From: an uncultured Clostridium sp. | GTDB lineage: Bacteria; Bacillota; Clostridia; Oscillospirales; Acutalibacteraceae | NCBI GenBank assembly: GCA_964386035.1 | Contig: CAYLQT010000010.1 | Span: forward strand, 14,963-78,962 | Length of the DNA stretch: 64,000 bases | Direction of reading: 5' to 3' | In this document: positions 1 through 63,222 of the stretch, one piece after another | Numbering within the stretch: the stretch's first letter is position 1 | Layout of the letters: the number at the start of each line of letters is the position of its first letter | Notes under the pieces: model-generated | Seen by the model: the letters and a program-made list of their open reading frames with translations, nothing else | Database searches by the model: none | What the model was told of the DNA's origin: nothing | Made by a program: the position numbers and the translations under genes

Positions 1-1146
1 AGAGGATACAGCCGTGCAGTCGGCACAATATTTTGATGCAAGAGCCGTTAAATCCTCGGGCATAAGGCTTCGGGGATTGTCGGGTGCGGTGAGATACATC
101 TTCTCAAAAAGCGGTGCCACGATGCGAAGATAGGTATCGCAATCCTTGTCCCCCATCAAAGCGCACACGCCGATTCGTCTACCGCCGACAAAGCGGTTTT
201 CAAAGGCGCAGAGGGCATTTGCACAGCCCTCATTATGTCCGCCGTCAAGGATTATATTGCCGCCGATAAACTCCATTCTCGCAGGCATAACGGCTGCTTT
301 AATCCCCTGCTCTATTTGACGGGCATCGATATTCAATCCGCTCTCGCACACGGCTGTGACTGCGGTGACGGCATTTTTTATCATGTGCTCACCGGCAAAC
401 GGAACATGAAGCTTCATCGAACCGAACAAAATATCAGTACCCGTTATGTCCTCACGAACCACACGGCAGTCGTCCATATTCGGCACAACCAGTCTGTTAT
501 GCTCACTCCTTGCGGTGTCGGTTATCACACGTATGACCTCGTCTGCCTGTTCCGGGTAGGCGACGGTCACGCCCTCGGACTTTATAATCCCGCATTTTTG
601 GGCGGCTATTTCCGAAAGTGTATTGCCTAAAACGGCGATATGATCCATTGAAATTGAGGTTATGACCGACACGAGCGGTGTTTTGATAATATTGGTCGAG
701 TCGAGCAGTCCGCCGAGACCGACCTCGAGCACCACCACATCACAGCGACGGCGGCGAAACCACAAAAAAGCGGCGGCGGTAAGAGTCTCAAACTCGGTGG
801 GAGAAACACCCTCACGGTCGAGCCGGTCGCAGACTGTTTTCACGTCACTGACAACCTCCGCAAGCTCCTCCGGCGGAATCATCTCACCGTCTATCTGCAT
901 ACGCTCACAAAAATCAATAACATACGGCGAGGTAAAAAGTCCCGTGCGAAGTCCTGCGTTGCTGAGAATCGACGCTATCATCGTGCTTGTCGAGCCTTTG
1001 CCGTTTGTTCCTGCTACATGGATAAAACGAAGTCCATCCTGCGGATTGCCGAGAGCGGCACACAGTGCGGAAATTCGCTCCATTCCGGGATTTATCCCAA
1101 AAGTCAAGCGAGAGTGAATATATTCGATTGCTTCAAAAGAGGTCAT
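1..1146 (-). CDS. folC: folylpolyglutamate synthase/dihydrofolate synthase (runs off left edge, 3' partial)
   Basis: Manual translation from ATG 1146 (RBS GGAG): MTSFEAIEYIHSRLTFGINPGMERI...IHVAGTNGKGST; later LDGGHNEG. Open frame where checked near base 1; directly downstream of valS. Confidence 0.93.
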   Translation of the reverse strand, partial: MTSFEAIEYIHSRLTFGINPGMERISALCAALGNPQDGLRFIHVAGTNGKGSTSTMIASILSNAGLRTGLFTSPYVIDFCERMQIDGEMIPPEELAEVVSDVKTVCDRLDREGVSPTEFETLTAAAFLWFRRRRCDVVVLEVGLGGLLDSTNIIKTPLVSVITSISMDHIAVLGNTLSEIAAQKCGIIKSEGVTVAYPEQADEVIRVITDTARSEHNRLVVPNMDDCRVVREDITGTDILFGSMKLHVPFAGEHMIKNAVTAVTAVCESGLNIDARQIEQGIKAAVMPARMEFIGGNIILDGGHNEGCANALCAFENRFVGGRRIGVCALMGDKDCDTYLRIVAPLFEKMYLTAPDNPRSLMPEDLTALASKYCADCTAVSS

Positions 1147-1180
1147 ACCATAGCTCCTTTCGGAGATTTTTTGTTGCGGT

Positions 1181-1441
1181 AAAATTACGCAGTCATCTAT
1201 ACTGTACCCTAAAAATTCGCCTCCCCTTTTCAGAGGAGGCTTTTTGTCATTTGCTTTTGCGGTTCTCACAACGCAGTATCACGCAAATTGTGCATTGGCG
1301 AGCCTCAAAGTCTCGAATGTGTAGCCAATAGTGGAATTTTGTGCGAGACAAGGCGTGGGGTTCTGCGGACGAGGGAGCATACTCTTGTATGTGACCGAAT
1401 ACGCAGGGTTCTCACAACGCAGTATCACGCAAAATTACGCA
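1181..1441. repeat. 250-bp intergenic insert bounded by 11-bp direct repeat AAAATTACGCA, containing a 43/44-bp direct repeat and a ~100-bp imperfect palindrome (REP/MITE-like)
   Basis: AAAATTACGCA at 1181-1191 and 1431-1441. GGTTCTCACAACGCAGTATCACGCAAA(A)TT..GCATTGGCGAGC at 1261-1303 and 1407-1450. Palindrome arms 1335-1349/1422-1436, inner CTGCG/CGCAG and CATAC/GTATG stems. Confidence 0.75.
1219..1245. terminator. intrinsic terminator-like hairpin between valS and folC
   Basis: GCCTCC-10 nt-GGAGGC with T-runs available on both strands. Confidence 0.5.
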
Positions 1442-4062
1442 TTGGCGAGCTTTGAAAGGCTGTCATTGAGCATCGCAATCTTCTCATTCAGCTTCCTTGC
1501 CGCTTCACGCTGTGCTTCGACAACGGCAGCAGGTGCTTTGGAGACAAAGTTTTCATTTGAAAGCTTGGCGTTGATACCGTCAAGCTGTTTTTGAGAGGAA
1601 GCAAGCTCCTTGTTGAGTCTTGCACGCTCTGCCTCGAAATCGACGAGATCGCCCATGGGAATATATATCTTTGCGGCATCGGTGACGATGCAAACTGCGC
1701 CATCTATCTCTATGCCTTCTTCAACCTCGACCTCGGATGCGCCTGCGAGTTTCTGCATAAACTCACACGAAAGCTTAAAGGTATCAACATAAGATGTGCT
1801 GAAATATACCTTCGCTCTCTTCGAATGAGGAACATTCATCTCGGCTCGGCGGTTTCTTATCGCCCTGACTGCCTCCATAATCATATCCATCTGCTTTTCC
1901 TCATCTTCAAAGGAAAGCTCAGACGAATACTGAGGCCACTCGGAGACCATTATACTCTCGCCCTCATGCGGAAGAGACTGCCAAATTTCCTCGGTAACAA
2001 AGGGCATAAACGGATGAAGGAGCTTCAAGATACCTATCATAACATGGATGAGCACACGCTTTGCACAGTGTGCAGGCTCGCCGCCCTTTTGCAGGCGAAT
2101 CTTTGCAAGCTCGATATACCAATCGCAGAAAACATCCCAGATGAAATCATAGAGCTTCTGAACGGCAACGCCGAGTTCGAATCTGTCAAGATTATCGGTG
2201 ACTTCCTTTACAAGGTCATTGTAAAGGCTGAGAACCCATTTATCCTCAAGTGAAAGCTCCTCGGGAAGTCCGGAGCTTTCGGAGCCGTCAAGATTCATCA
2301 AGATGAAACGGGCGGCGTTCCAAAGCTTATTGGCAAAGTTACGGCTGGCTTCAACCTTCTTGTCGGAATATCTCATATCGTTTCCGGGGCTGTTGCCGTT
2401 GGCAAGAGTGAAGCGAAGTGCATCCGCACCGTACTTGTCAATAACCTCAAGGGGATCGATGCCGTTGCCGAGAGACTTCGACATCTTTCTGCCCTGCTCA
2501 TCACGGACAAGACCGTGGATAAGCACGGTATCAAATGGAACCTGACCAGTCTGCTCTATGCCCGAGAACATCATTCTCATGACCCAGAACGGGATTATAT
2601 CGTAACCTGTAACAAGGGTGTTTGTGGGATAATAGCGTTTGAAGTCCTCGCTGTCCGTATTCGGCCAGCCGAGAGTTGAGAACGGCCAAAGTGCAGACGA
2701 GAACCAAGTATCGAGAGTATCGGGATCCTGATGAATGTGTGTACTGCCGCACTTTGAGCACTTATCGGGAGCGGTTCTTGCAACGGTTATCTCGCCGCAG
2801 TCATCGCAATACCACGCAGGGATTCTGTGACCCCACCAGAGCTGACGGGAAATACACCAGTCACGGATATTCTCAAGCCAATGGAAATAGACCTTCTCAA
2901 AACGCTTGGGGACAAACTTGGTTTCGTCATTCTTAACAGCATCAATCGCAGGGCCTGCAAGCGGCTTCATGCTGACGAACCACTGCTTTGAAACACGAGG
3001 TTCAACGGTGGTTGAGCAGCGGTAGCAGGTGCCGACATTGTGGCTGTAATCCTCAACCTTGACAAGTGCGCCCTCGGCTTCGAGATCCTTGACTATTGCC
3101 TTTCTCGCCTCGTATCTGTCCATACCGGCATACTTCGGATAGTCATCAACTATCTTGGCATCGTCGGTGAGAACATTTATGACAGGCAGGTTATGACGCA
3201 GACCGACCTCAAAGTCGTTCGGGTCATGTGCAGGGGTTATTTTAACAACGCCTGTACCGAAATCTATCTCAACATAATCGTCAGCAACAACGGGAATCTC
3301 ACGGTGGACAATAGGCAGAATGAGCGTCTTGCCGACTATATCCTTATATCTTTCATCGTTGGGGTTGACTGCAACGGCGGTATCACCGAGAAGTGTCTCG
3401 GGTCTTGTGGTTGCAAGCTCCAGATAACCACTGCCGTCCTTGAAGGGATAGCGCAGATGCCAGAAGTGACCTGCCTGATCCTCATACTCGACCTCCGCAT
3501 CGGAAATTGAGGTCAGGCAATGGGGGCACCAGTTGATTATTCTCTCGCCTCTATAGATAAGTCCCTTTTCATAGAGACTGCAAAACACTTCATTGACAGC
3601 CTGATTACAGCCCTCGTCCAATGTGAAGCGTTCACGCTCCCAGTCGCAGGACGAGCCCATTTTCTTGAGCTGTTCAATTATTCTGCCGCCGAACTTATCC
3701 TTCCATGCCCATGCACGCTCAAGAAAGCCGTCTCTGCCGACATCGTCCTTGGTAAGACCCTCTTTCGCCATAGCCTCGACTATCTTCGCCTCGGTTGCGA
3801 TAGAAGCGTGGTCTGTGCCGGGCAACCAGAGAGTATCATAGCCCTGCATACGATGATAGCGGATAAGAATATCCTGGAGAGTATTGTCAAGTGCATGACC
3901 CATATGGAGCTGTCCCGTGATGTTCGGAGGGGGGATAACTATTGTATAGGGCTTCTTTTCCGGATCGGGAACGGCATGAAAGTAATTGCCGTCGAGCCAG
4001 AATTTATAAGTTCTGTCCTCCACTTCCTTAGGATCATACTGCTTTGCGAGTTCCTTTGCCAT
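1435..4062 (-). CDS. valS: valine--tRNA ligase
   Basis: [13 protein letters not shown] (HIGH), [21 protein letters not shown]-terminal coiled coil; start could be 4074. Confidence 0.98.
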
Positions 4063-4143
4063 AACATAATCCATTTCTCCGGCGAATAAGATTTTATATA
4101 AACGCTTTTGCTCCGCGCCGGAGGAGCTGCGTCGGTTTTCAGA

Positions 4144-5076
4144 TTAAAGTCCGTTTGAGTTGAGGAAGTCTAAGGTAACTTCACAAAGCTCATCGGCACG
4201 GTTCTCATTGCACATATGACCGCCACCCTTGACTTCATAGGTCACGGCAGAGGTAAGTGCGGCGTTTACCTGAGTTTTCATCCACGGCATAAGCACAAGG
4301 TCGCACTCAGCCTGAACGAGCAAAACAGGCATTTCTATCTTCGATGCCGCATCGAGGTCGGTCGGTCTTGCATTGAACATCATGCTTATCATGCTCTCGC
4401 CTGTGTAATCCACGCCGAGCGGATCGGAAACCGCAGAGACATCGTAGCTCATGGCGAAATCCCAGTCAACAAAAGCGGCAAGCAGAACTACTCGCATAAG
4501 CGGAGTTACCATCGTGCCGTATTTCAGGAATGCGGACATAAACTTGCCCATAAACTCGCTACCGAATATTCCCTGCATAAATGACGGAAATTCACTCACG
4601 GGTGCAGGGCAATAGAGCATAAGTGCCTGAAGCTCGGGAGTTTCTGCGGCTATATTCATAGCAACGCCGCCGCCCATGGAATGGCCTGCCAATATCCACT
4701 CATCCATAGGAGCTATAGAGAGCATGAGCTGTTCTACAAGTATCTCACGGTCGATGTGTTCAACATCGGCGGTCTCACGAGTGGTATAGCCAAAGCCGGG
4801 GAGGTCTGCGAGAACGCACTCATAGCCGGACTGATTGAGAAGCTTTGCCATAGGCTCCCACGCATAGGTGGAACAGCCGAAGCCGTGGAGCATCATAACC
4901 CTGCCCTTCATATCGCCCTCTGCCTCAAAAACACGGTAATGCACGCTGTAATCACCGTATTCAAAAAACTCACTGTTTTCAAACGGCTTTTGGGTCTGAG
5001 CGAATACAGGTACGGAAATTGCGAGTAATATGACCGTTGCGAGCATAACTGCCGCAAGTCTTTTAAGCTTTTTCAT
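4144..5076 (-). CDS. secreted alpha/beta hydrolase (lipase/esterase-like)
   Basis: Signal-peptide-like N-terminus (MKKLKRLAAVMLA...VFA), HGFG oxyanion motif, GHSMGG nucleophile elbow, C-terminal GGHM. Confidence 0.85.
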   Translation of the reverse strand: MKKLKRLAAVMLATVILLAISVPVFAQTQKPFENSEFFEYGDYSVHYRVFEAEGDMKGRVMMLHGFGCSTYAWEPMAKLLNQSGYECVLADLPGFGYTTRETADVEHIDREILVEQLMLSIAPMDEWILAGHSMGGGVAMNIAAETPELQALMLYCPAPVSEFPSFMQGIFGSEFMGKFMSAFLKYGTMVTPLMRVVLLAAFVDWDFAMSYDVSAVSDPLGVDYTGESMISMMFNARPTDLDAASKIEMPVLLVQAECDLVLMPWMKTQVNAALTSAVTYEVKGGGHMCNENRADELCEVTLDFLNSNGL

Positions 5077-18372: not shown

Positions 18373-20814
18373 TTAGCTATCGATTTTTTCGAGCTTTGCG
18401 TAGTTAGCCATTATCTTCTTTGTACCGACCTTATCGAAAGCGATTTCAAGCATGGTATCGTTGGCCATCTTTTGCAGACTGAGTATAACACCTGTGCCGT
18501 ATGCCTTATGCTTGACACTCTCACCGACCGAATAGGTCTGTGCCGAGGCGGCGGGCTTCTTTGCGGTGCCGGATGAGAAGCCGCCCGAGAAGCCGGATTT
18601 TGACGAAAATCCGGTTGCTGATTTGGTGGGTATAGAACCCGAGGCTCTTGACGCCGACGGCTTTACAAAGCCCTTTTGAGCGTTATTTTGACGTTGCCCA
18701 ATACCGTAGGTTCTATAGGAATTAGCCCTCGCTCCCCTTACATCAAGCAGCTCATCGGGGATCTCCTCAACAAACCTTGACGGGCGGTTGCGGTTCGTCA
18801 TTCCGTAGAGCATACGGGTGGAGGCACAGGAGATACAAAGCTTTTTCTTCGCTCTCGTAATTGCAACATAGGCAAGTCTGCGTTCCTCCTCGATGTTCTC
18901 CGGCTCGTAGAGTATCGTCTGCATTCCCGGGAAAATTCCCTCCTCCATACCGACAATAAAGACATTCGGGAACTCAAGACCCTTGGCGGAATGTATAGTC
19001 ATCATAACGACCGCCTGCGTTTGGGAGTTGTAGTTATCAATATCCGTCAAAAGTGCAGTCTCCTGCAAAAATCCGTTGAGGTCGCCATCGGGATTCTCCT
19101 CGCAATAGCGTCTTATATTGTTACCGAGCTCGGCAAGGTTCGCCACTCGCTCCTGATAACTTTCCGGCTCGTTCGCAAGTGAAAGCGTATAGCCCGTTTC
19201 ATCGAGAATAACACCGAGCAGGTCATAGAGCGGCATGGTATCAAGTCTTTCACGGAACGAATCAATAAGCTTGCCGAAAGTCATAAGCTTTGACGAGGCT
19301 CTTGAAAGCTTGGCATACTGATCTGCCGAGCGGATAACCTCAAAAGGTTCAACTCCGAGGCCTGCGGAAATTTCAAAGAGGGCATTGAGCGATGTATCGC
19401 CTATTCCCCTCTTAGGCTCGTTGATTATTCTTCTGAGCCTTATCTCGTCTGCGGTGTTGTTGACGAGATAGAGATAAGCCATGGCATCCTTTATCTCTTT
19501 ACGGTCATAGAATCTGTGACCGCCTATCATTCTGTACGGCACGCCGCTTCTGATAAACGACTGCTCGAGCAAGTTCGACTGGGCATTCATTCTATAGAGA
19601 ATCGCATGGTCGTTCCAGCCGTCGCCCGCCGCAACATTTGACATTATCTTATCCGCAACATAGCGGCTCTCGCCCATTTCATCCTCGGCGGTGTAAAACT
19701 CTATTTTTGTGCCCTCTCCGTTATTCGTCCAGAGGTTTTTGCCCTTACGCTGTTCGTTGTGTGCGATAACCGCATTGGCGGCATCAAGGATAGTCTGAGT
19801 TGAGCGATAATTCTGCTCAAGGCGAATGACCTTGGCAGTCTTATACTGCTTTTCAAAGCTCAAAATATTCTCTATCGTTGCACCTCTGAAGCGGTAGATA
19901 CTCTGATCGTCATCACCGACAACACAGAGGTTTCCGTGGCTCTGAGCGAGCAGAGAGGTCAGCACATACTGTGCGTGGTTGGTATCCTGATACTCATCGA
20001 CCATTATGTATTTAAAGCGATTTTGATAATATTCACGGGTATCGGGGCAGGTTCTCAGGAGCTTTACCATATTGACTATCAAATCGTCAAAGTCCATGGC
20101 ATCGGCTTTTTTGAGGAATCTTTGATACTCCTCGTAGACCTCACCTATCTTTTTAAGGCGAATATCCGCCTGATTCTGAGCAATAAACTCAGAGGGTGAA
20201 ACAAGCTCATCCTTGGCACGGCTTATCTCGGAGAGCACCGACTTTACCGGAATCATCTTCTCGTCATAGCCGAGCTTCTTTATACACTCCTTGGCGGCTC
20301 GCTTGGAGTCGTCCGAATCATATATGGTGAAATTATGTGTATAGCCTATTTCATCGGCATGGCGGCGCAAAATCTTGGCACAGGTCGAGTGGAATGTGCT
20401 TGCCCACACATCGTTGCCGCTCTCACCGAGTGCCTTGCAGATACGCTCTTTAAGCTCGCCTGCCGCTTTATTTGTGAATGTTATGGCAAGAATCTGCCAC
20501 GGCTTTGCGGGGCGAACGCTCAGAAGATCCTCCGCCTCAAAAAAGCTCTCATCGCCGCCGAGATATGCCTCGAGCAGTTCCTCATCCCCTTCTCGCAGAG
20601 GACGGGAAAAATCGGAGGAATAGTATGCCTCACCGTATTTGACAAGATTTACAATACGGTTGACGAGCACTGTGGTTTTGCCGCTGCCGGCTCCTGCAAG
20701 TACCAAAAGCGGTCCTTTGGTAGCAAGGACCGCTTCAAGCTGCATATCATTCATCCGACTGAAGTCTTTTTTGATTATCTGCTGTCTTAAAGAAATCAGT
20801 TTTTCTAAATTCAT
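18373..20814 (-). CDS. pcrA: ATP-dependent DNA helicase PcrA (UvrD family)
   Basis: LAGAGSGKT, ITFTNKAA, VDEYQDTN, VGDDDQSIYRFRGA, LEQNYRS, MTIHSAKGLEF, EEERRLAYVAITRA, Tudor-like C-terminus. Confidence 0.96.
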   Translation of the reverse strand: MNLEKLISLRQQIIKKDFSRMNDMQLEAVLATKGPLLVLAGAGSGKTTVLVNRIVNLVKYGEAYYSSDFSRPLREGDEELLEAYLGGDESFFEAEDLLSVRPAKPWQILAITFTNKAAGELKERICKALGESGNDVWASTFHSTCAKILRRHADEIGYTHNFTIYDSDDSKRAAKECIKKLGYDEKMIPVKSVLSEISRAKDELVSPSEFIAQNQADIRLKKIGEVYEEYQRFLKKADAMDFDDLIVNMVKLLRTCPDTREYYQNRFKYIMVDEYQDTNHAQYVLTSLLAQSHGNLCVVGDDDQSIYRFRGATIENILSFEKQYKTAKVIRLEQNYRSTQTILDAANAVIAHNEQRKGKNLWTNNGEGTKIEFYTAEDEMGESRYVADKIMSNVAAGDGWNDHAILYRMNAQSNLLEQSFIRSGVPYRMIGGHRFYDRKEIKDAMAYLYLVNNTADEIRLRRIINEPKRGIGDTSLNALFEISAGLGVEPFEVIRSADQYAKLSRASSKLMTFGKLIDSFRERLDTMPLYDLLGVILDETGYTLSLANEPESYQERVANLAELGNNIRRYCEENPDGDLNGFLQETALLTDIDNYNSQTQAVVMMTIHSAKGLEFPNVFIVGMEEGIFPGMQTILYEPENIEEERRLAYVAITRAKKKLCISCASTRMLYGMTNRNRPSRFVEEIPDELLDVRGARANSYRTYGIGQRQNNAQKGFVKPSASRASGSIPTKSATGFSSKSGFSGGFSSGTAKKPAASAQTYSVGESVKHKAYGTGVILSLQKMANDTMLEIAFDKVGTKKIMANYAKLEKIDS

Positions 20815-61053: not shown

Positions 61054-61533
61054 TCACTTTGATATTTTGTTCAATACTCCTCCGACAGCGGCAGTCGCAT
61101 CCTTAACAAAATTTACCTTGGTGTCGAAGATAAGCCCGTTACCGTCGGATATTTCTATATGTGCGATGACGAAATCGTTGCCGTCCGTCTGCACGGTGTT
61201 TCCGTCAGCTGTCAACCATGTTATCTTAATATTGTTTAGTGCAATGTCGTTATCAATCGGCACTTCAAACTGTGCACCGTCAAAGAATGTCGCCTGCGAT
61301 TTGGCGTTGACAATCAGTCTGCCTCTTTGCTCATATATCTCAATCGAATTATATCCTTCTTTTTCTTTCACGATAAGCTCGTCCGAGCCGACCTGAATTT
61401 TGAAAATCTCGCCCGATTTTTCTTTTTGAACTCTGATAACGACCGTTGAAACGACGAGTAACACGACCACAAAGAGTGAAGAAACAATAAGAATTATCTT
61501 GTCCTTTTTAGTGTGCTGAATGCTATCCTCCAT
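61054..61533 (-). CDS. hypothetical single-pass membrane protein
   Basis: One N-terminal TM (IILIVSSLFVVVLLVVSTVVI) then beta-rich domain; own promoter- and terminator-like signals. Confidence 0.7.
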   Translation of the reverse strand: MEDSIQHTKKDKIILIVSSLFVVVLLVVSTVVIRVQKEKSGEIFKIQVGSDELIVKEKEGYNSIEIYEQRGRLIVNAKSQATFFDGAQFEVPIDNDIALNNIKITWLTADGNTVQTDGNDFVIAHIEISDGNGLIFDTKVNFVKDATAAVGGVLNKISK

Positions 61534-61573
61534 CCGTCTATCCTCTCTCATCACACAATATGATTTAGAGTTG

Positions 61574-61601
61574 ATTATATCACGAACACAGATATTTTCA
61601 A
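61574..61601 (-). promoter_or_regulatory. sigmaA promoter for the membrane protein gene
   Basis: TTGAAA-N16-TATAAT with TG extension. Confidence 0.5.
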
Positions 61602-61746
61602 GGGGTTTGAGGAAATATTAAAGGGCAATATCCGCCGCAAACAGAGGTGACCCATTTTCAGTAAAAAAACCAAGGTGTTGTATATCAAAACGCAGAACGG
61701 CGAAAGTGTTGCGCTGAACAAGGTACGGTTTAACAGACAGAAGCAT

Positions 61747-61776
61747 AAAAAAGCACCTGAATTTAATCAAGTGCTT
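61747..61776 (-). terminator. terminator overlapping HD-protein stop codon
   Basis: AAGCACTTGA-TTAAAT-TCAGGTGCTT-TTTT on minus strand. Confidence 0.75.
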
Positions 61777-62176
61777 CAAGACAGTGTTTATATTTTTCAA
61801 CTCTGGCCAAGTCTTTTTCTGTTACAACCTTGAGCCGAGTCAAATCCGAATTATGCCATAAGTCTTGAATCTTCACGACTTTGGCAAGCTCATTTGCTTT
61901 TACCCGTTCAATATATTCTTCATAGCTTTCATCCTTTCTATGAGTGATGGCATCGAGAGCCTCCACAATATTCGGACTAAATCCCAATGCCGAAAACCAG
62001 TCAAATGAATAACTATCGTTATCTTCAACAACATCATGCAAGAGTGCAACTATCTTTTGTTCTTCTGTCTCACAACAACTCGCCACATAAAACGGATGTA
62101 AATAATACGGTTTTCCGCCCTTGTCCACTTGCCCTTTGTGAGCTTCCATACAAATCTTTTCAGCTATCTTAAGCAT
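61763..62176 (-). CDS. HD-domain small alarmone hydrolase (Mesh1/SAH; Aph1-like)
   Basis: AH.GQ.DKGG.PY..HP..V, ALLHDVVED, VKIQDLWHN; standalone RelA/SpoT-type hydrolase domain, 137 aa. Confidence 0.88.
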   Translation of the reverse strand: MLKIAEKICMEAHKGQVDKGGKPYYLHPFYVASCCETEEQKIVALLHDVVEDNDSYSFDWFSALGFSPNIVEALDAITHRKDESYEEYIERVKANELAKVVKIQDLWHNSDLTRLKVVTEKDLARVEKYKHCLEALD

Positions 62177-62378
62177 ATCGTTTAATCACTTCTTTCGCTT
62201 CTTCCTCTGTAATTGTGTCAACATTAATATCACCTGTATAAATTTGTAGCATTTCGCTATCCTCGACCCAACGGTGAGAACCAAAGCTGTACCGCTCAAA
62301 ACGCGCACCATCTCTATGCCGAATCAGCACAGGTGGTCTTCCCGGCAGAGCGAAATCTTCCAAATAATATTTTGTCAT
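62169..62378 (-). CDS. 69-aa protein coupled to the HD hydrolase (possible toxin-immunity protein)
   Basis: MTKYYLED...RWVED...ITEEEAKEVI; its stop overlaps the hydrolase start by 8 nt. Confidence 0.7.
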   Translation of the reverse strand: MTKYYLEDFALPGRPPVLIRHRDGARFERYSFGSHRWVEDSEMLQIYTGDINVDTITEEEAKEVIKRYA

Positions 62379-62449
62379 TATCCAACCCCATTTTATAATA
62401 TACGCTAACGAAAATATGCAAATAAAACATTTTCGACAATTCAATTTAA

Positions 62450-62647
62450 TCAACCATTTAAAAATTCAGATGCCCGATGTGCATCTATCACAGCATCCTC
62501 ATCGCCTATCGCCTCCAGTCGTTCTGCGAAGCTACACTTGATTTCTTCATACATCTCTACAGGTACTTCCGCAGTCAAAAGCTTATTTTCTATGAGCTTC
62601 AAGCGATATTTACCATCTTCAATAATATTCCAAATGATTTTTACCAC
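62450..62647 (-). CDS. hypothetical 65-aa protein
   Basis: GTG start overlapping upstream stop by 7 nt; weak RBS; no recognised motif. Confidence 0.4.
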   Translation of the reverse strand: MVKIIWNIIEDGKYRLKLIENKLLTAEVPVEMYEEIKCSFAERLEAIGDEDAVIDAHRASEFLNG

Positions 62648-63222
62648 GTTTTATCTTCATACGGTGTATCTTTGACACCGTTATCATTAAGATGACGCAC
62701 CATATTATCCAACACGCCGTGCCACATTCTTTTAAACCATTCGGTCTCACCGAACCACTTCACTACCGTGGGACTTATCGCATAATATGTATGAATGAAC
62801 GCTCTACCGAGCATTGTCTCCGCCAGAGTATTGTCCCTGAAACGGCGCAGTGTCCACACCTGAGGGCAATCATAGGAGCCGTACACACAGGTTGCCACAT
62901 AACAACCCTGACTGTCGCTGTGATTGTACGATCCGAACATCCCCGGATTGCTGGAGCCGGTCTTATTACCGTTTGAATCTCGGTGTGTATAACCGCCGAA
63001 CAGTCCCGGGTCTGAATGTCCTGTTTTGCGACCTTGATTGTCATAATGATTATATCCGCCGAACAATCCCGGGTCGGAGCGACCGGTCTTATTGCCGTTG
63101 GCATCGTAATTGGTGTAACCTCCGAAAAGACCGGGTTCGCTACGCCCCACCTTCTTGCCATGCTCATCATAGTGATTGACGGTGCCGAATAAACCCTGTT
63201 CGCTTCTGCCTTTGTTTGCCAT
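62641..63222 (-). CDS. repeat protein with C-terminal CFI-box-CTERM domain
   Basis: Five 21-aa repeats then GCYVATCVYGSYDCPQVWTLRRFRD..L....GRAFI..YY..SP; RBS GGAGG. Confidence 0.85.
   Translation of the reverse strand: MANKGRSEQGLFGTVNHYDEHGKKVGRSEPGLFGGYTNYDANGNKTGRSDPGLFGGYNHYDNQGRKTGHSDPGLFGGYTHRDSNGNKTGSSNPGMFGSYNHSDSQGCYVATCVYGSYDCPQVWTLRRFRDNTLAETMLGRAFIHTYYAISPTVVKWFGETEWFKRMWHGVLDNMVRHLNDNGVKDTPYEDKTW
62905..63210 (-). repeat. in-frame 63-bp (21-aa) tandem repeat, ~4.9 copies
   Basis: GRSEQGLFGTVNHYDEHGKKV / GRSEPGLFGGYTNYDANGNKT / GRSDPGLFGGYNHYDNQGRKT / GHSDPGLFGGYTHRDSNGNKT / GSSNPGMFGSYNHSDSQG. Confidence 0.92.

Follow-up and report, generated by a model that had tools for sequence, protein, structure and literature searches.

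A coupled gene pair on the reverse strand

We analyzed a window of 64,000 nucleotides (nt) of DNA from an uncultured gut member of the Clostridia, Oscillospiraceae/Acutalibacteraceae-like (contig CAYLQT010000010.1 of assembly GCA_964386035.1, positions 14,963 to 78,962), in which two small overlapping genes very probably represent iapK-aph1, the immunity half of a phage MuF-Apk2 toxin module, stranded in the chromosome. The first gene, at 62169..62378 on the reverse strand, encodes a protein of 69 amino acids (aa) and is, from its open reading frame (ORF) and homology, iapK-like; its product is a predicted protein inhibitor (immunity protein) of MuF-Apk2 (p)ppApp-synthetase toxins. The second, aph1, at 61763..62176 on the same strand, encodes a 137-aa protein that homology predicts to be an HD-domain (p)ppApp pyrophosphohydrolase. 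The two ORFs overlap by 8 nt, at 62169-62176, with the start codon of aph1 inside the iapK-like gene, an arrangement that the first-pass annotation of this DNA had correctly read as translational coupling. That annotation had also reported a terminator overlapping the stop codon, and we found an intrinsic terminator at 61750..61777 (reverse strand), at the downstream edge of the cassette: its hairpin (61777..61750) has 11 pairs followed by a T-run, holds the TAA of aph1 within its loop and folds with -15 kcal/mol (z = -4.4; 0 of 200 shuffled sequences were as stable). Because both proteins have strong homologues, and the same overlapping arrangement is found elsewhere, we conclude that the pair does not consist of chance ORFs.

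On the 5' side, a ribosome-binding region, GGGGTTGGATA, lies ahead of the ATG of the iapK-like gene at 62379..62389 (reverse strand). A consensus scan detected a promoter-like site, TTTGCA and TATTAT separated by a 16-nt spacer, at 62395..62422 on the same strand, 17 nt 5' of this ATG. It scores 9 of 12 consensus matches, lies outside the block that is shared with phages, in host-specific sequence, and is a predicted, candidate promoter of the two-gene unit. Further upstream, a terminator-like hairpin (62487..62467) separates the promoter-like site and the pair from the upstream genes, and the next downstream gene (166 aa, 61054..61554) has a strong promoter-like site of its own at 61601..61574. 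Because of the promoter-like site, the flanking terminator-like hairpins and the downstream gene's own promoter-like site, the pair looks like a self-contained transcription unit. It is bordered on one side by the gene of a CFI-box repeat protein and on the other by a gene for a membrane protein, which adjoins type IIA topoisomerase genes. Neither a tRNA nor an Rfam element was found flanking the cassette.

The proposal that the HD protein is an Aph1 held up. The best match of the 137-aa protein in the PDB was 7SMG, '(p)ppApp hydrolase' (E = 1.5e-32, residues 2-131), with an alignment that spans residues 8-136 of the 149-residue chain, and its length fits the short single-domain type of Aph1. 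Hydrolase domains of RelA/SpoT proteins were weaker PDB matches, at 1e-8 or worse. The protein also matched phrog_990 (metal-dependent phosphohydrolase, 3e-45), the hydrolase region of TIGR00691 (6e-10) and, weakly, Pfam HD_4. Both motifs that the first-pass annotation had described as intact were present, the HD dyad as H47-D48, aligned with that of Aph1, and the KxxDxxHN motif as K102-x-x-D105-x-x-H108-N109. Six residues of Aph1 (D24, R96, D116, R119, K133 and Y134) set (p)ppApp hydrolases apart from (p)ppGpp hydrolases (Ahmad et al. 2023, PMC10083569); the window protein has every one of them at the aligned position (D18, R91, D111, R114, K128 and Y129), and Aph1 N114 is kept as well, as N109. 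The window protein is 41% identical to the Aph1 of Bacteroides caccae, 52% identical to that of a Streptococcus pneumoniae prophage and 72-83% identical to the products of the phage-borne aph1 genes described below. The HD family is large, with 909 proteins at E<=1e-10. The window allele carries a derived R107W change adjacent to the HN motif. Taken together, these data show that the 137-aa protein belongs to the Aph1 (p)ppApp-hydrolase family, and the signature residues predict activity on (p)ppApp rather than on (p)ppGpp.

The 69-aa protein gave no match in Pfam, NCBIfam, PADLOC or PHROGs and no sequence match in the PDB. A word-indexed search found six close clusters at 68-97% identity, and an exhaustive profile search of 1.84 billion representatives delimited a family of 59 proteins (representatives at 50% identity), nearly all of 60-100 aa, among whose aligned members no Pfam family was present. 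No close relatives were found in 185,579 species-representative genomes, and tblastn against 50,697 phage genomes returned no match at E<=1. The link to S. pneumoniae was found via aph1 and not via the 69-aa protein; when the family profile (A2) was compared with the 69-aa product of the gene that occupies the iapK position in S. pneumoniae phage IPP37, hhalign gave a probability of 92.5% and an E value of 4.8e-7. When 2115 six-frame ORFs of the window and of five loci were searched with hmmsearch, the hits were only small genes after MuF, without any false match, and the pneumococcal 69-aa protein was the sole match from outside the family (E 3.8e-6). On the strength of this profile match and of the genomic context of its homologues, which lie between MuF-Apk2 genes and aph1 in prophage head modules, we file the 69-aa protein as IapK-like, in agreement with the first-pass annotation; binding and neutralization of a toxin are predictions from sequence. 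Gene order leads us to infer that IPP37_00043 corresponds to the assayed SPNA45_00318.

An AlphaFold2 (AF2) model built from the 59-sequence alignment had a predicted local distance difference test score (pLDDT) of 90.3 and comprised four beta-strands, a short helix, a fifth strand and a C-terminal helix; an earlier model from 7 close sequences, with a pLDDT of 51, was unusable. Foldseek, which is weak at 69 residues and may therefore miss a distant relationship, found no significant match of the model in the PDB, with 6OX6 (Tis1, the immunity protein of the type VI secretion toxin Tas1/Apk1) outside the best 50, and Tis1 was not found in sequence and profile searches of the PDB with the 69-aa protein either. 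Against BFVD, Foldseek returned only weak, non-significant matches to uncharacterized small phage proteins. An apparent Kelch-repeat identity in the PDB profile search (E ~1e-10) was rejected as an artefact, in which one ERYDxxxxxW hairpin matched six blades with no individually significant stretch. This ERYDxxxxxW motif, residues 28-37 of the window protein, is the most conserved motif of the family, and its mimicry of Kelch repeats is a trap for automated annotation. A second IapK suggested at window positions 20515-20625 (tblastn with a phage IapK, E 0.017) was dismissed as a chance match, the family hidden Markov model finding no second copy in the window.

Phage-borne modules and toxin-less copies

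Homologues of the pair occur in complete phage modules. Contigs with the homologues P0006 and P0005 encode a terminase, a portal, a MuF protein (518 aa), the small gene, the HD gene, a scaffold and a capsid. Loci L001-L009, L026, L028 and L029 encode, in this order, a portal, a MuF protein (517-527 aa), the small protein, Aph1, a scaffold and a capsid, and L025 has the same module order without aph1; two IMG/VR viral contigs show the same gene order. Distant family members (26-35% identity) occupy the same position in the phage lineages L026, with an HD gene, and L025, without one. In at least five phage lineages, family members thus lie directly 3' of a MuF-Apk2 gene, usually before aph1. The neighbourhoods of the homologues, inspected for alarmone synthetase genes as the first-pass annotation had proposed, do therefore include them in the form of MuF-Apk2 genes. 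In IPP37 the MuF gene is followed by the 69-aa gene and then by the 137-aa HD gene, with overlapping stop and start, and the order apk2-iapK-aph1 has been described in S. pneumoniae SPNA45, as SPNA45_00317-00319 (Paulet et al. 2025, PMC12226406).

A C-terminal domain of ~180 aa, common to the MuF proteins of these phages, matches the alarmone synthetase structure 8VX3 (3e-13) and, weakly, Tas1, and the proteins align end to end with the MuF-Apk2 of S. pneumoniae IPP37 (2e-39). The domain has the syn2, syn3 and syn4 variants RYT, GxN and F/YH, which are those described for Apk2 (PMC12226406). In a prophage of metagenome-assembled genome GCA_002298685.1 (L005, 3627-3956), aph1 aligns over residues 1-110 only and no gene was called, whereas the near-identical phages L006 and L009 have aph1 intact, indicating that aph1 is also lost within phages. 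The cases of L025 and L005 agree with the published remark that aph genes are variably present (PMC10083569). We also noticed by eye that the spacer between the toxin stop and iapK in L028 (5934-6000), and its counterpart in L016 (134-200), holds a TTTACA...TATAAT promoter-like element and a strong GGAGG ribosome-binding site, which suggests that the immunity genes may be expressed independently of the late operon. The window copy is without this spacer.

In the window, only the two immunity genes are left, which suggests that bacteria may retain such phage antidotes by themselves. When two MuF-Apk2 proteins and the portal, scaffold, capsid and 378-aa phage proteins were compared with the 64-kb window by tblastn, only these two genes were matched, and the ORFs upstream of the pair had no RelA/SpoT or MuF family match, which confirms the earlier reading that no synthetase lies upstream. 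The block common to the phage MuF-Apk2 modules and to the other orphan copies extends over 61746..62389, with 73-86% nucleotide identity (blastn). All alignments to relatives stop at 62389, the upstream limit of the ribosome-binding region and 11 nt before the iapK-like ATG, and the downstream limit of similarity to the phage modules falls at 61746-61775, just past the terminator. Because homology stops 11 nt before the start codon, no toxin remnant is present upstream of the pair. The adjacent synthetase gene that marks a complete Apk2 toxin-immunity locus is missing, and the window locus classifies as orphan immunity. No recombinase or further immunity gene was found near the cassette, whose neighbours are the membrane protein gene, a 65-aa ORF, the CFI-box protein gene and a GH38 gene.

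The topoisomerase genes beside the pair share 88% identity with those of the nearest species-representative genome. Synteny with related species reaches only to ~60925, just upstream of the topoisomerase B gene, so that a clean empty site from another species was not definable; the pair is absent at this locus in related species. A conspecific contig that continues beyond the window end (L010) carries a truncated phage scaffold-like ORF (594-998), with a good N-terminus and a garbled C-terminus, and an acetyltransferase-like gene (2473-3014) that is split into two ORFs, as read from the translations. They lie 4-6 kb upstream of the pair, beyond the GH38 alpha-mannosidase gene, and do not follow the gene order of the phage module; they could be additional remnants of a prophage.

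Toxin-less copies were found at other chromosomal sites as well, in other bacteria. Outside the species, the nearest relatives are L019 and L020, with 86% and 83% protein identity; immediately 5' of the pair they still carry the final 61 codons of the toxin gene, which are 80% identical, and in one of the two an insertion sequence (IS) element then follows. In L016-18, identity to phage L028 is 97.4% over a stretch that opens with the final 8 nt of the toxin gene and ends 73 nt beyond aph1; there the copy starts ~70 nt downstream of a tRNA gene, and host genes follow. In L021-24, a pair of 71 and 143 aa is located in a variable island that also holds IS elements and pieces of other polymorphic-toxin genes, and L014/15 keep only aph1 and a 66-nt remnant of iapK. 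These orphan loci form a decay series, from a kept 61-aa toxin stub through the clean pair to aph1 alone. Because the same 640 bp survives at several independent sites, and because the toxin is lost first and the hydrolase last, the pair appears to be favoured over the rest of the prophage.

Known systems and the surroundings of the pair

The apk2-iapK-aph1 module of S. pneumoniae (PMC12226406) shares with the window its gene order and gene sizes, the 69- and 137-aa genes overlapping in IPP37, as well as an Aph1 of 52% identity and a small protein that is homologous at the profile level, and the phage relatives of the window pair carry a MuF-Apk2 that is alignable end to end. It differs from the window, which has neither apk2/MuF nor a prophage, whose IapK is beyond detection by BLAST and whose host belongs to the uncultured gut Clostridia. 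The Apk2-BcTis1-Aph1 system of a B. caccae prophage (PMC10083569; structure 7SMG) follows the same bicistronic logic of an inhibitor and a (p)ppApp hydrolase, with an Aph1 that is 41% identical and has all the specificity residues. In IMG/VR phages whose Aph1 is 100% identical to 7SMG, aph1 is preceded by the gene of a cysteine-rich protein of 86 aa that is unrelated to the IapK-like family (hhalign probability 0.1%). Among these Bacteroides phage contigs (L121-L200), L121 encodes at 1542-3911 a 550-aa MuF, the 86-aa protein and then the 7SMG-identical Aph1; the MuF C-terminus of the 7SMG-type phages gave no PDB match and no similarity to the Firmicute Apk2 domains. With the IMG/VR loci standing in for the published B. 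caccae locus, these comparisons suggest that the immunity proteins that act by binding are probably not homologous between the Firmicute and the Bacteroides systems, whereas the hydrolases are.

Stand-alone Aph1 homologues have been described that, like the window aph1, have no adjacent toxin, MuF or portal (PMC10083569), but the window aph1 is still coupled to the gene of a toxin-specific inhibitor, and its recent phage origin can be traced in the DNA. In toxSAS pairs such as FaRel-ATfaRel (PMC10083569), an HD hydrolase likewise detoxifies the product of a RelA/SpoT-like toxin, but these are two-gene toxin-antitoxin modules that include the toxin, which the window lacks. The window pair also resembles the orphan immunity of polymorphic toxins in consisting of immunity genes without a cognate toxin, in having relatives with truncated toxin 3' ends upstream (L019/L020) and in its presence or absence among strains. 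Orphan immunity genes without a cognate toxin are known from the acquired interbacterial defence (AID) islands directed at type VI secretion systems and from the orphan modules of contact-dependent inhibition and Rhs systems, and the AID systems of Bacteroidales are recombinase-associated clusters of multiple immunity genes. Here, the source is a phage capsid-associated MuF toxin and not a secretion-system effector, enzymatic immunity that is independent of the toxin is combined with binding immunity, and no immunity array or adjacent recombinase is present in the window.

The gene on the upstream side of the pair (62641-63222, reverse strand) encodes a 193-aa protein with five tandem repeats of ~21 aa, of the form G-R/H-S-E/D-P-G-L-F-G-G-Y-x-x-Y-D-x-x-G-x-K-T, and with a C-terminal, cysteine-rich CFI-box-CTERM domain (NCBIfam NF041770, 3e-22); it also has weak RHS/YD-repeat matches. 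No mention of 'CFI-box' was found in the searchable literature. An acidic 65-aa ORF with a GTG start (62450-62647, reverse strand), for which no family match was found, overlaps the 3' end of the 193-aa gene, stop codon included, by 7 nt and is separated by 71 nt from iapK, which lies downstream of it; in conspecific contigs a 72-aa ORF on the opposite strand or a 42-aa ORF was called in its place. On the downstream side, the 166-aa membrane-anchored protein encoded at 61054-61554 (reverse strand) matches the phage family phrog_35626 (1e-12). Loci L111 and L116 (~1000-4740) carry a third allele of this site, in which a deletion of the cassette is combined with an insertion of ~3.7 kb that holds a UDP-glucose dehydrogenase gene, an NAD-dependent epimerase gene and a 264-aa gene and is flanked by duplicated 166-aa gene region; in L111, the partial duplicate of the 166-aa gene is diverged, with 73% DNA identity. 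The site upstream of the topoisomerase genes is a hotspot of variation.

Origin and present-day role of the pair

The overall best explanation, which we hold with somewhat better than even confidence, is that the pair is a two-gene orphan immunity cassette that came from a phage. Temperate phages that infect gut Clostridia or streptococci encode the head-morphogenesis protein MuF with a C-terminal Apk2 toxin domain, which makes (p)ppApp from ATP; the toxin gene is followed by iapK, whose small product blocks the toxin by binding, and by aph1, whose HD enzyme converts (p)ppApp to ATP, ADP or AMP. The chromosome studied here has kept iapK-aph1 only, in what looks like a small transcription unit of its own with a host-derived promoter-like site, translational coupling and a terminator. 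If an Apk2-type toxin entered the cell, for example with the DNA of an infecting MuF-Apk2 phage, IapK would specifically neutralize closely related toxins and Aph1 would break down what any (p)ppApp synthetase makes, the pair acting as orphan immunity. Experiments have shown that Aph1 proteins cross-protect against non-cognate Apk toxins and that IapK is mostly cognate-specific (PMC10083569, PMC12226406); an expressed pair should therefore give broad but partial enzymatic protection together with specific protection against closely related Apk2 toxins. Sequence comparison establishes to which families the two proteins belong, that they came from a phage, that the toxin is missing, where the cassette ends, that orphan pairs recur elsewhere and that strains of the species differ in having the pair; we infer its expression, its binding and hydrolysis activities and its fitness benefit, and we regard the chance that it protects the cell today as about even.

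Several observations weigh against this explanation. In a sister lineage of the same species that is ~97% identical to the window, represented by contigs of three metagenome runs from three studies and by loci L111 and L116, which have the same joint, 61884-62616 is replaced by 91 unrelated bases. The missing segment comprises the 5' 293 nt of aph1, the whole iapK-like gene and 238 nt upstream of it, including most of the 65-aa ORF. What is left of aph1 is a translatable 3' stub, KVVKIQDLRHNLDLTRLKVVIGKDLAGVEKYKHCLEALD, which is 89.5% identical in DNA and thus more diverged than the flanks. Since this stub remains, the common ancestor already had aph1 here and one lineage later lost the pair; since the sister lineage lost most of the cassette, the pair is dispensable. 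Comparison of the window with conspecific contigs gave 3 nonsynonymous and 0 synonymous changes in the pair, against 0 nonsynonymous and 7 synonymous changes in secG and the two topoisomerase genes (Fisher p = 0.008). The three changes, P11L and I27F in IapK and R107W in Aph1, are all derived in the window and affect positions that are conserved among close relatives. This pattern resembles relaxed constraint, although diversifying selection would look identical. The ratio of nonsynonymous to synonymous rates (dN/dS) is low for both genes in pairwise comparisons of copies from different sites (0.05-0.16, with ~0.1 for orphan versus orphan), but it may have arisen largely during the time that the genes spent inside phages. 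The promoter is a weak consensus match, and the RNA data for the pair amount to two 151-nt pieces, 100% identical to the window and within 61629-61913, from a run labelled as RNA by guess; one of them reaches past the terminator into the spacer beyond, which is not enough to infer either transcription or read-through. Furthermore, as discussed in PMC10083569, no experiment has so far shown that MuF toxins are delivered into cells. Given the sister deletion, the exclusively nonsynonymous changes and the lack of solid RNA evidence, the benefit of the pair appears conditional, and the window copy is possibly drifting; retained prophage debris, or conditional or fading immunity, fits the data as well as an actively selected defence does. 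The first-pass annotation had proposed that the host kept the protective genes without the toxin, as acquired immunity. Of this proposal, the absence of the toxin stands, on the tblastn result and on edges that coincide with gene limits, whereas retention as a defence is called into question by the sister deletion and the 3:0 changes.

Among the other explanations, the one that deserves most attention is that the pair is inert debris, a remnant of a decayed MuF-Apk2 module that has not yet been erased and is without current function; we consider it rather unlikely, though far from negligible. It would account for the stub in the sister lineage, for the 3:0 changes, for the failure to find solid RNA evidence, for related loci at every stage of decay and for the truncated scaffold-like ORF and the disrupted acetyltransferase-like gene a few kb beyond the window end in L010. 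It does not readily account for two ORFs that are both intact, with their translational coupling and terminator retained, or for the low dN/dS among orphan copies. The same two genes alone survive, with clean edges, at three to four other chromosomal sites, and aph1 alone at another, and random decay would not repeatedly favour the same 640 bp.

We give very little credence to a housekeeping role, in which Aph1 would be the cell's own hydrolase of (p)ppApp (or of ppGpp/NADPH), acting on endogenous alarmones, with the small protein as an accessory or regulator. The large size of the HD family is in line with such a role, as is the fact that most Aph1 homologues in the databases are not beside toxins or phage genes, and a physiological role of (p)ppApp has been proposed (PMC10083569). 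However, the window aph1 is similar to the phage-borne copies and entered together with iapK in one phage block, the family of the small protein is otherwise found directly after MuF-Apk2 genes, and the pair, being absent in the sister lineage and at this locus in related species, is accessory and not core. It is equally improbable that the locus is a complete system with an unrecognized toxin, namely the 193-aa CFI-box protein or the product of the 65-aa ORF, that the pair neutralizes. The weak RHS/YD-repeat-like matches of the former and the close packing of the latter between the 193-aa stop and iapK might suggest this, but neither protein matches an alarmone synthetase or a toxin family, a terminator-like hairpin divides the upstream genes from the pair, and the relatives of the pair are never linked to either gene. 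Moreover, the sister lineage keeps the 193-aa gene without iapK and most of aph1.

It is already established that Aph1 homologues commonly occur without a toxin, and for secretion-system toxins orphan immunity genes are familiar. In the searchable literature, we found no description of toxin-less iapK-aph1 pairs from MuF-Apk2 phages or of the IapK-like family as a family. The present analysis delimits this previously un-annotated family, with its 59 representatives at 50% identity, no Pfam entry and a confidently predicted fold without a PDB match. If the pair is only debris, it provides a tidy example of the erosion of a prophage module in which the antidote genes are the last to go.

Among temperate phages of gut and pathogenic Firmicutes, toxins fused to MuF are common, and what purpose they serve, and whether they reach cells that do not produce them, is still unsettled (discussions of PMC5576092 and PMC10083569). 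A toxin-less, phage-less pair at several independent sites makes sense as a selected trait only if the toxin comes from outside. We therefore put forward, tentatively and as a possibility on which we would not wager, that the orphan pairs are host defences, selected because capsid-carried MuF-Apk2 toxins enter, along with the injected phage DNA, cells that lack a gene for them, and that the changes in IapK reflect an arms race and not decay. If this were true, the repeated survival of the pair in non-lysogens would be the first, though indirect, genomic evidence for the trans-delivery of MuF toxins.

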